NCBI RefSeq assembly: GCF_001677475.2
Contig: NZ_CP015229.1
DNA: 64,000 bases
From: Escherichia coli
GTDB taxonomy: Bacteria > Pseudomonadota > Gammaproteobacteria > Enterobacterales > Enterobacteriaceae
Direction: 5' to 3' (one strand)
Below are positions 12,343 through 13,427 of this stretch, one piece after another. The notes beneath the pieces are model-generated. The model ran no database searches, was not told the origin of the DNA, and worked only from the letters and a program-made list of their open reading frames with translations. A program made the translations under genes and the position numbers. Numbering within the stretch: the first letter of the stretch is position 1; every line of letters starts with the position of its first letter.

Positions 12343-13044
12343 ATGACCAAGCTTAAATATGATGAAAACGGCCTGCTAGCAGAATACTATGCAAAAACAG
12401 ATATTGACGGTGATGTCATCACTCACAAAGATGACAGAATGACGTATTTATTAAATAAAAATACTGGCTCTATTTCTGTAGTGATAAAGTGGAAGTATGA
12501 GTGGTATAAGGATAATACCGTTACAGATGACTGGACTGTATTGGAAAAAGCTATTTTCATGAGATCAGTATATTTATCTGTTCAACAGGCATGGAATGGG
12601 AAAATAACTTATTCTGTTTCCGGTGAATCTGAGTTCGCTAAAAAATTTCAGGGGAAAGCTTTGCCTTTTGATGTGAGGATAATCCCTGTATCTCAGAATG
12701 AAGACTGGTTGGTAATTGCAACTAAAGTTTTGCCTGGTGCTGATTTAAGAACGTATGTTGATTTTAAGAACAGCACGGTTCATGTTGACTCAGCAGACCT
12801 GGAAAAAGTAGCAAAATGTTTTAATTGTAACAATACAGTGCAAATAAATATACCACATGAAGCCGGACATGTACTTGGTTACTTAGATGATGATTATGAT
12901 TCTTCGTCTCCGTATGTTGGAGATGTTAGTGGGCTGATGAATATGGGAATGGAACTCCGGGAAAGATATCTTAAAAACTCAACTATAACGTTGAATGTAA
13001 TAATGCCTGATACTAACTTCACTCTATTGAATGTAACCAAATGA
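12343..13044 (+). CDS. HExxH zinc-metallopeptidase-like protein; candidate T6SS effector
   Basis: HEAGHVLGY motif; no signal peptide; AT-rich; directly upstream of vgrG; overlaps downstream signal-peptide ORF. Confidence 0.45.
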   Translation: MTKLKYDENGLLAEYYAKTDIDGDVITHKDDRMTYLLNKNTGSISVVIKWKYEWYKDNTVTDDWTVLEKAIFMRSVYLSVQQAWNGKITYSVSGESEFAKKFQGKALPFDVRIIPVSQNEDWLVIATKVLPGADLRTYVDFKNSTVHVDSADLEKVAKCFNCNNTVQINIPHEAGHVLGYLDDDYDSSSPYVGDVSGLMNMGMELRERYLKNSTITLNVIMPDTNFTLLNVTK

Positions 13045-13427
13045 AATTAATCTGTATTATAGTGTTCTTTCTTTCAATAAATTACGTAATCACAGCAAAT
13101 GTTTTCGAGCCTTCTGTAGTTTTTCAATCTCCCAGGTATTATGAGGAAAATGATATACAGAATGGAAATAACGATGCTTTTTTTGTGAAAAAATACGGCC
13201 CGCCTGTTCATGAGTTCATGAAGCCACGATATAAGTTTGCCGGTGAATATTATATCGGCTTGAATCAGACTTATCGCATCACAAACCCTGAATTTAAAGA
13301 TGTGCCTATTAAAGAAATGTTCTGGAATCTGCAAGAGGATTTAAATCTTACATGCTGGTTCCATTATAAAGACGGGCAGTGGCGGGTTATTTCTTATATT
13401 TTTTGGCCACCAGGGGCTAAATTTTAA
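13041..13427 (+). CDS. Small secreted protein; candidate cognate immunity protein
   Basis: Signal-peptide-like N-terminus MKLICIIVFFLSINYVITA; ATGA overlap with 12343..13044. Confidence 0.4.
   Translation: MKLICIIVFFLSINYVITANVFEPSVVFQSPRYYEENDIQNGNNDAFFVKKYGPPVHEFMKPRYKFAGEYYIGLNQTYRITNPEFKDVPIKEMFWNLQEDLNLTCWFHYKDGQWRVISYIFWPPGAKF

Follow-up and report, generated by a model that had tools for sequence, protein, structure and literature searches.

A gene pair between tagF and vgrG in a type VI secretion system (T6SS) island of Escherichia coli (contig NZ_CP015229.1, assembly GCF_001677475.2; the window below is the whole 64,000-nucleotide stretch that was analysed) is probably an antibacterial T6SS effector-immunity cassette, in which a 233-residue zinc metallopeptidase would be the toxin and a 128-residue exported protein its antidote. 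This reading is well supported computationally. It draws on gene structure, T6SS context, homology with variable region 2 (VR2) of Salmonella pathogenicity island 6 (SPI-6), an invariant motif, a fold class, an export signal and the co-inheritance of the two genes across phyla; secretion, toxicity, the compartment of action, the substrate and direct inhibition are what we infer. An earlier note, made by reading the letters of the window, had pointed to the pair as an HExxH metallopeptidase-like protein with a secreted partner.

Results

Structure of the gene pair

The two genes lie on the same strand and are coupled by a stop/start overlap, ATGA. The peptidase (26.5 kDa, pI 5.1) carries HEAGHVLGYLDDDY at residues 172-185, within which HEAGHVLGY occupies residues 172-180 (nt 12856-12882). 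Its highest 15-residue hydropathy on the Kyte-Doolittle scale is only 1.09, indicating that the protein has neither a signal peptide nor a membrane helix. On the same scale, the N-terminus of the partner is strongly hydrophobic (2.73 at residues 3-17) and signal-peptide-like, MKLICIIVFFLSINYVITA being followed by NV. The GC content of the peptidase and partner genes is 0.359 and 0.354, respectively, compared with 0.649 for tagF, 0.539 for vgrG and 0.537 for the whole window; similarly low values are found in the window for a Tae4/Tai4-like cassette (38-41%) and for an Rhs toxin tip (39%). We thus confirmed what the earlier note had read from the letters, that is, an AT-rich pair made of an HExxH open reading frame (ORF) lacking a signal peptide and an overlapping ORF with a signal-peptide-like start. 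Both ORFs are real genes and not chance occurrences, since identical proteins are recorded in GenBank (ANO87388.1 and ANO87389.1, E. coli, annotated 'hypothetical protein'), homologues number in the hundreds and AlphaFold models the peptidase with a predicted local distance difference test (pLDDT) score of 94.4. The vgrG start lies 24 nt past the stop codon of the partner and has a strong AAGGAG ribosome-binding site. A scan for promoters and terminators yielded nothing stronger than shuffled controls did, consistent with co-transcription.

Position in the T6SS island

The gene downstream of the pair is VgrG (TIGR03361, E=1e-166). The upstream gene matches the TagF model TIGR03373 (E=4e-10) with 39.9 bits, slightly below the 41.2-bit cut-off, and its counterpart at the homologous locus of E. 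coli carries a TagF-domain annotation, so that the placement between tagF and vgrG given in the earlier note was borne out. On the + strand, the island carries, in this order, a BPSL0067-family/STY0301-family pair followed by Hcp, TssJ, TssK and TssL; an unannotated small pair and TssM; genes for a Rap1a/Tai-like immunity protein and a Tae4-family amidase; and TagF, the studied pair, VgrG, a DcrB/Eag-like chaperone and PAAR-Rhs. This Escherichia island is syntenic with Salmonella SPI-6. The window DNA is ~93-96% identical to E. coli, where the island adjoins tRNA-Asp.

The content of the slot between tagF and vgrG varies. In E. coli AR_0077 it holds a paralogous pair (39% and 52% identity), a vgrG fragment and then the studied pair, and in strain Rb-50 a glucosaminidase-domain gene with a small downstream ORF, a tagF fragment and then the paralogous pair. 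The tagF and vgrG fragments left beside these extra cassettes suggest that cassettes are exchanged by recombination inside the flanking genes. The studied allele is present in 34 of 5,426 complete E. coli genomes, every copy being chromosomal, 87-88% identical and annotated 'hypothetical protein'; a search of plasmids found no close copy of the pair.

Relatives in Salmonella SPI-6

Two 243-aa candidate effectors of SPI-6 VR2 were described by Blondel et al. (2023; PMC10469887), labelled Reprolysin_4 (for example SESEF3709_03438 and SEES3845_018655) and Peptidase_M64 (NCTC7411_03656), with putative immunity proteins bearing a signal peptide or a transmembrane segment. At the Salmonella locus used for comparison (L004), the gene order is tssM, tagF, two Tge2/Tgi2P pairs, a 243-aa gene, a 144-aa gene, vgrG, DcrB and Rhs. 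The window peptidase aligns over its full length with the 243-aa protein (L004:5273-6001; BLASTP 49% identity, 243 columns, E=5e-87) and is 45% identical to a second Salmonella subfamily (P0010, serovar Okatie, 243 aa), and the window partner shares 71% identity with the 144-aa protein along 100 residues. Homologues of the partner occur in serovars Senftenberg and Montevideo, the serovars reported for the 'Peptidase_M64' candidate. Judged by these alignments, the window peptidase is of the same family as the SPI-6 VR2 candidates, and the two systems share the slot between tssM/tagF and vgrG, a bicistronic organization with a signal-bearing partner and the predicted role of a cargo, antibacterial, periplasm-acting effector. 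The window pair differs as a distinct Escherichia allele or subfamily, of 233 aa and sharing no more than 88% identity with the form that is commonest in E. coli.

The family is very probably also STox_19 of Nicastro et al. (2026; PMC12994826, S2 Table), a metallopeptidase classed there as antibacterial and cargo with reference to Blondel et al. (2023), for which 95 of 198 Salmonella loci lie in the vicinity of a T6SS; the match was made by the S2 Table description, not by sequence, and the STox_19 representative EOV2532878.1 was not among the accessions in our cluster look-up. Literature searches with the RefSeq and GenBank accessions of the pair returned nothing, and our literature searches found no published experimental test of any family member. 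The earlier note had not recognised the protein as a characterised effector family: this stands insofar as we found no experimentally characterised member, but the family had already been published as candidates, in PMC10469887 and very probably in PMC12994826.

Family, motif and fold of the peptidase

Sequence searches of Pfam, NCBIfam, PADLOC and the PDB gave no usable match to either protein of the pair, and the 233-aa protein had no match up to E=10 to the Pfam families Reprolysin_4 (PF13583) and Peptidase_M64 (PF09471). Among 118 relatives, E<=1e-3 is reached by three for Reprolysin_4 and by one for Peptidase_M64; on these sequence comparisons, the two published labels reflect marginal, motif-level matches. 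A word-indexed homologue search reached no further than relatives in Escherichia, Citrobacter and Enterobacter, all at least 78% identical, whereas an exhaustive profile search of 1.84 billion representatives retrieved 206 relatives (86 at E<=1e-10), which are mainly stand-alone proteins of 200-285 aa.

Residue conservation was counted in an alignment of 118 sequences, with the numbering of the window protein. H172, E173 and H176 are invariant (118/118), and D183 is found in 116 sequences, D/E184 in 117 and Y185 in 114; conservation extends to D194 (109/118), R208 (114/118) and three tryptophans, W64, W84 and W122, each present in at least 110. The family consensus reads HEFGHxxGxxxDEY...D..S(I/L)MNxG..LRxRH, and in alignment the motif is matched by HEFGH..G...DEY of 3p1v, an M64-like peptidase. 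Compared with the metzincin zinc motif HExxHxxGxx(H/D), G179 is present in 81 of the 118 sequences and D182 of the window protein falls at the canonical last position; the conserved acidic residue is D183, in the D-E-Y triad, at a variable spacing of 5 to 25 residues from His176. Further downstream, a candidate Met-turn lies within S-I/L-M-N-x-G, with M199 in 99 sequences (Leu in 13), N200 in 99 and G202 in 117. The Met199 segment forms, in the AlphaFold model, a loop between helix 169-177 and helix 207-220. Structural neighbours of this model are ADAMs, matrix metalloproteinases (MMPs) and astacins, and the catalytic domain as modelled has a divergent metzincin-like fold, which we liken to the metzincin clan (adamalysin/reprolysin M12B, astacin M12A, MMP M10, snapalysin M7, ulilysin/pappalysin M43 and igalysin M64). 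The remote-homology search and structure prediction that the earlier note had called for thus gave a family and a confident metzincin-like model. The label 'amidase' published for the Salmonella candidates found no support in our analysis, because the fold indicates an endopeptidase.

The first ~25-30 residues are particular to the enterobacterial clade: non-enteric homologues align from query residue ~26-40 onward, and the pLDDT of this segment is 65-82 versus >93 elsewhere. It is possibly a loading or recognition element. Cys159 and Cys162 are present in all enteric subfamilies but in just 26 of the 118 family members, and as a clade-specific pair they were downgraded as evidence of a periplasmic disulfide. 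In some relatives, the catalytic domain is fused to a peptidoglycan-binding domain, namely LysM (3-4 representatives), PG_binding_1 (one) or OmpA (one), and the neighbours of the peptidase in the AlphaFold database include proteins annotated as LysM or peptidoglycan-binding. Together with the exported partner, these fusions point to the periplasm and cell wall as the site of action; they speak to localization, not to substrate.

The exported partner and its co-inheritance with the peptidase

The partner has no Pfam match, including to the adaptor families DUF4123, DUF1795 and DUF2169. Its homologues form 43 clusters, in Proteobacteria and Bacteroidota, and most full-length ones begin with a hydrophobic, signal-like stretch. 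Of the 43, 42 end in Phe, the lone exception appearing truncated, and P55, E92, W95 and this C-terminal Phe are invariant in a 15-sequence alignment. In a linker-fused AlphaFold2 model of peptidase and partner, the latter is an alpha/beta domain ending in a three-stranded meander (pLDDT ~85-96); the predicted template modelling score (pTM) of the fusion is 0.67, between the ~0.6 of independent domains and the ~0.8 of a rigid complex, two benchmarks that are our own rough estimates. Foldseek comparison of the fused model with the PDB gave no significant fold match, and weak NTF2-like and Tai3 matches to the partner, with E above 0.02, were dismissed as noise. Because the partner ends in a near-invariant Phe, we speculate that it inhibits by product mimicry, with the carboxyl end of the terminal Phe lying in the cleft.

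A small ORF homologous to the partner lies directly downstream of the peptidase gene, overlapping or abutting it, in Salmonella SPI-6 (144 aa), in a Bacteroidota-type T6SS locus (134 aa, lipoprotein-like signal), beside a LysM-fused form (130 aa) and beside a PG_binding_1-fused form from Rhodobacterales (133 aa), and pairwise BLASTP comparisons among these four partners give E-values of 1e-5 to 1e-10. No partner-like ORF adjoins the peptidase gene of a T6SS-linked relative on a metagenome contig (locus L011). Across ten paired loci, peptidase and partner identities are correlated (r=0.86, Mantel p ~2e-4; r=0.91 within enterics), implying that the two genes are inherited as a unit. Such inheritance is what one would expect of a toxin that has an inhibitor of its own, the co-divergence of the sequences by itself showing co-inheritance only. 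Between enteric subfamilies, conservation is higher in the partner than in the peptidase (57% vs 40% and 68% vs 52% identity), the opposite of what is usual for immunity proteins, and this could reflect cross-protection between subfamilies.

T6SS linkage and delivery route

A Bacteroidota relative has TssD (Hcp) genes on either side, and its cluster also encodes TssC, TssF, VgrG and Rhs; the non-enteric relative at L011 adjoins TssG and ClpV. No T6SS genes were found within 8 kb of the LysM- and PG_binding_1-fused forms. Thus, the family is repeatedly, not exclusively, associated with T6SS. No adaptor gene accompanies the pair, and since the vgrG adjacency of the enteric loci is matched by Hcp adjacency in Bacteroidota, delivery by Hcp would be as possible as delivery by VgrG. 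The earlier note had proposed a VgrG-delivered effector with its immunity protein. An effector with its immunity protein is supported by the operon position, SPI-6 VR2 synteny, the invariant motif, the metzincin-like fold and the co-inherited exported partner; VgrG would be only one of two candidate carriers, the Bacteroidota homologue sitting between Hcp genes. At L011 we also observed, beside TssG/ClpV (positions 5574-9702), three short ORFs of ~188 aa, each with a ClpB_D2-small domain, in alternation with small ORFs that lack annotation and include the peptidase homologue; the whole resembles a repeated cassette array.

Other features of the window

The features of the pair and of its flanks are collected in Table 1.

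Table 1. Features of the gene pair and of the flanking genes, in window coordinates
Feature	Coordinates	Strand	Reading or basis
tagF, upstream flank	11506..12276	+	TIGR03373 match and RefSeq annotation of the homologous locus
Candidate zinc metallopeptidase, 233 aa	12343..13044	+	Predicted T6SS cargo effector, divergent metzincin-like fold
N-terminal segment, ~25-30 residues, enterobacterial clade only	12343..12432	+	Alignment starts and pLDDT
Cys159-x-x-Cys162, loop before the active-site helix	12817..12828	+	Candidate disulfide
Zinc-binding/catalytic motif H172-E173-A-G-H176-V-L-G179-Y-L-D-D183-D184-Y185	12856..12897	+	Predicted, from conservation
Candidate Met-turn S-G-L-M199-N-M-G202	12928..12948	+	Between the zinc motif and the C-terminal helix
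Stop/start overlap ATGA coupling both genes	13041..13044	+	Direct sequence reading
Exported partner, 128 aa	13041..13427	+	Predicted periplasmic immunity protein/inhibitor
Predicted Sec signal peptide of the partner (MKLICIIVFFLSINYVITA)	13041..13097	+	Hydropathy 2.73, residues 3-17
Codon of C-terminal Phe128 of the partner	13422..13424	+	Terminal-residue conservation
vgrG, downstream flank	13452..15665	+	TIGR03361 match; AAGGAG ribosome-binding site

Residues 1-110 of VgrG (13452-13780) form an Ala-rich N-terminal extension, the TIGR03361 match beginning at residue 112. Between tssL and tssM, a tightly packed small pair (5069-5755 and 5752-6039) encodes a protein of ~228 aa, read from an internal ATG at 5069, and one of 95 aa with two hydrophobic helices, at the position that Tlde1 and its partner occupy in E. 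coli AR_0077; the 228-aa protein has no Pfam match and the enclosing 271-aa ORF (4940-5752) no NCBIfam match. This small pair is possibly a further uncharacterised effector-immunity cassette. The AT-rich genes at 10152-10847 and 10844-11320 are annotated in the homologous E. coli locus as Rap1a/Tai-family immunity and Tae4-family amidase, so that in this cassette the immunity gene lies upstream of the effector gene; the 231-aa Rap1a/Tai-family protein resembles an internal tandem duplication, with similar halves that carry TWCGY and TWCDY motifs. Directly upstream of hcp, a BPSL0067-family gene (263-670, E=8e-50) is followed by an STY0301-family gene (683-1135, E=2e-18), which together we take to be, probably, a Tae2/Tai2-type effector-immunity pair. 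In PAAR-Rhs (16153-20295), the C-terminal tip (~19750-20295) is AT-rich (GC 0.39) and has a weak Tox-ART-HYD1 match (E=0.0026), and the 111-aa ORF overlapping it (20288-20623) is probably the Rhs immunity gene. A gene for an Ivy-family C-type lysozyme inhibitor (22599-23072, E=3e-83) lies just beyond the T6SS island, and at ~50000-54000 there are lateral flagellar genes of the Flag-2 type (homologues of flgC-flgI) that share ~95.7% identity with E. coli.

Discussion

Proposed mechanism

In the mechanism that we propose, the 233-aa protein would belong to a divergent metzincin-like family and act as a small zinc endopeptidase, with His172 and His176 as metal ligands, Glu173 as general base, Asp183 of the D-(E/D)-Y triad as the likely third ligand and Met199 as the likely Met-turn residue. 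Produced in the cytoplasm without a signal peptide, it would be mounted on VgrG or Hcp of the T6SS needle, and firing would take it into the periplasm of Gram-negative neighbours. There it would cut a component of the cell envelope, most likely the peptides of peptidoglycan or a protein associated with peptidoglycan; the protein is as plausible a target as the peptides, because metzincins normally cleave proteins. The partner would be exported by Sec to the producer's periplasm and bind the peptidase one-to-one, thereby protecting sister cells.

The best functional analogues of the window pair are the C-terminal metallopeptidase of P. aeruginosa VgrG2b with its immunity protein PA0261 (Wood et al. 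2019, PMC6899460) and the free-standing SARI_02727/SARI_02726 pair of Salmonella arizonae (PMC12992299). VgrG2b and SARI_02727, which have experimental support, are T6SS-delivered HExxH metallopeptidases, toxic in the prey periplasm and neutralized by a periplasmic immunity protein. We rejected membership of the VgrG2b family: the window peptidase resembles the VgrG2b C-terminal domain (6h56) neither in structure nor in sequence, and its family is not that of VgrG2b and SARI_02727. The neighbouring SPI-6-type cell-wall cassettes Tae4/Tai4, Tge2/Tgi2P and Tlde1/Tldi1 follow the same logic as the window pair, being small AT-rich bicistrons of effector and periplasmic immunity protein in variable regions of the same island, with interchangeable slots, but the folds and chemistry of Tae4 (papain-like amidase), Tge2 (glucosaminidase) and Tlde1 (L,D-transpeptidase) are unrelated to those of the peptidase.

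Alternative explanations

The alternative that survives best, though we consider it unlikely, bears on present-day function and is compatible with the family assignment: the cassette would be a relic, the T6SS of this strain being disabled by a nonsense codon in tssL and the pair being kept mainly since its immunity gene guards against toxin-firing kin. Within tssL (3745-5061), an in-frame TGA at 4462-4464 replaces the CGA (Arg) of E. coli AR_0077 and Rb-50; it separates the cytoplasmic DotU part (3745-4464) of this long-form TssL from the transmembrane and OmpA-like part (4465-5061), truncating the protein ahead of the membrane helix. If this stop is real, the T6SS may be inactive in this strain and the pair may then serve perhaps for immunity only. 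A relic is also in keeping with E. coli LR-31 (locus L002, NZ_AP027520.1 920505-921589), which keeps an intact pair in a heavily degraded island by tRNA-Asp, with a T6SS remnant that comprises a truncated tssA, vgrG and Rhs pseudogenes and an ISAs1 fragment. However, an ATG directly follows the tssL stop and a split TssL might still assemble, the TGA could be a sequencing error, and in the window neither ORF of the pair is disrupted and no catalytic residue is missing.

Far less probable is that the pair is a general module of secreted protease and periplasmic inhibitor, whose vgrG adjacency would be incidental and whose peptidase would leave by another exit route or act on the producer's own envelope. 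In serralysin/aeruginolysin systems, a metzincin gene adjoins a small gene for a signal-peptide-bearing periplasmic inhibitor (Inh/AprI) that guards the producer, a genetic arrangement like that of the window pair. Serralysin-type proteases are exported by type I secretion and attack proteins of the host or the environment, and Inh/AprI blocks the site with its N-terminus; neither the sequence nor the fold of the window partner matches such an inhibitor. The LysM- and PG_binding_1-fused relatives with their partners, in loci lacking T6SS genes within 8 kb, fit a module of this kind, and one such locus lies near a serralysin-like protease and a type I secretion ABC/MFP pair. The window peptidase has no signal peptide, however, and the enteric pair is found only in a T6SS island slot that otherwise holds Tge2-type cassettes. 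T6SS linkage is moreover independent in Bacteroidota and at the TssG/ClpV locus, and characterizes the 95 of 198 Salmonella STox_19 loci mentioned above.

We give hardly any weight to an anti-eukaryotic effector, that is, a metzincin cleaving host proteins after T6SS delivery into animal cells: metzincins typically cut proteins and not peptidoglycan, and the structural neighbours are ADAMs, MMPs and astacins, but a tightly coupled, co-diverging exported partner conserved across phyla is the signature of self-protection against a periplasm-acting toxin, and relatives are found in free-living marine and soil bacteria and with peptidoglycan-binding fusions. It is just as implausible that the partner is a co-secreted accessory factor or chaperone and not an immunity protein, as its unusually high conservation relative to the peptidase in enteric subfamilies and the fused model, which gives no confident complex, might suggest, since its Sec signal peptide sends it to the periplasm, apart from the cytoplasmic loading of the T6SS, it matches none of the adaptor families named above and the DcrB/Eag chaperone of the locus belongs to Rhs.

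Implications

Beyond the antibacterial effector-immunity cassette, a bolder proposal, which we regard as doubtful, is that of an uncharacterised metzincin-like toxin family with its own inhibitor family, forming a two-gene module that ranges from Proteobacteria to Bacteroidota, in T6SS-i, in T6SS-iii and apparently outside T6SS, where the Phe carboxylate would sit on the catalytic zinc as a product mimic and the toxin, not a peptidoglycan amidase, would hit a new envelope target. The family having been flagged in two Salmonella surveys, the main gain here is its extension to Escherichia and sharper hypotheses, with no new category. If the effector-immunity reading is true, a metzincin-type endopeptidase would be added to the known periplasm-acting T6SS toxins of E. 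coli and Salmonella, dominated so far by amidases, glycosidases and L,D-transpeptidases; its partner with the terminal Phe could reveal a new mode of metzincin inhibition, and its substrate would possibly be a new vulnerable point of the Gram-negative envelope.
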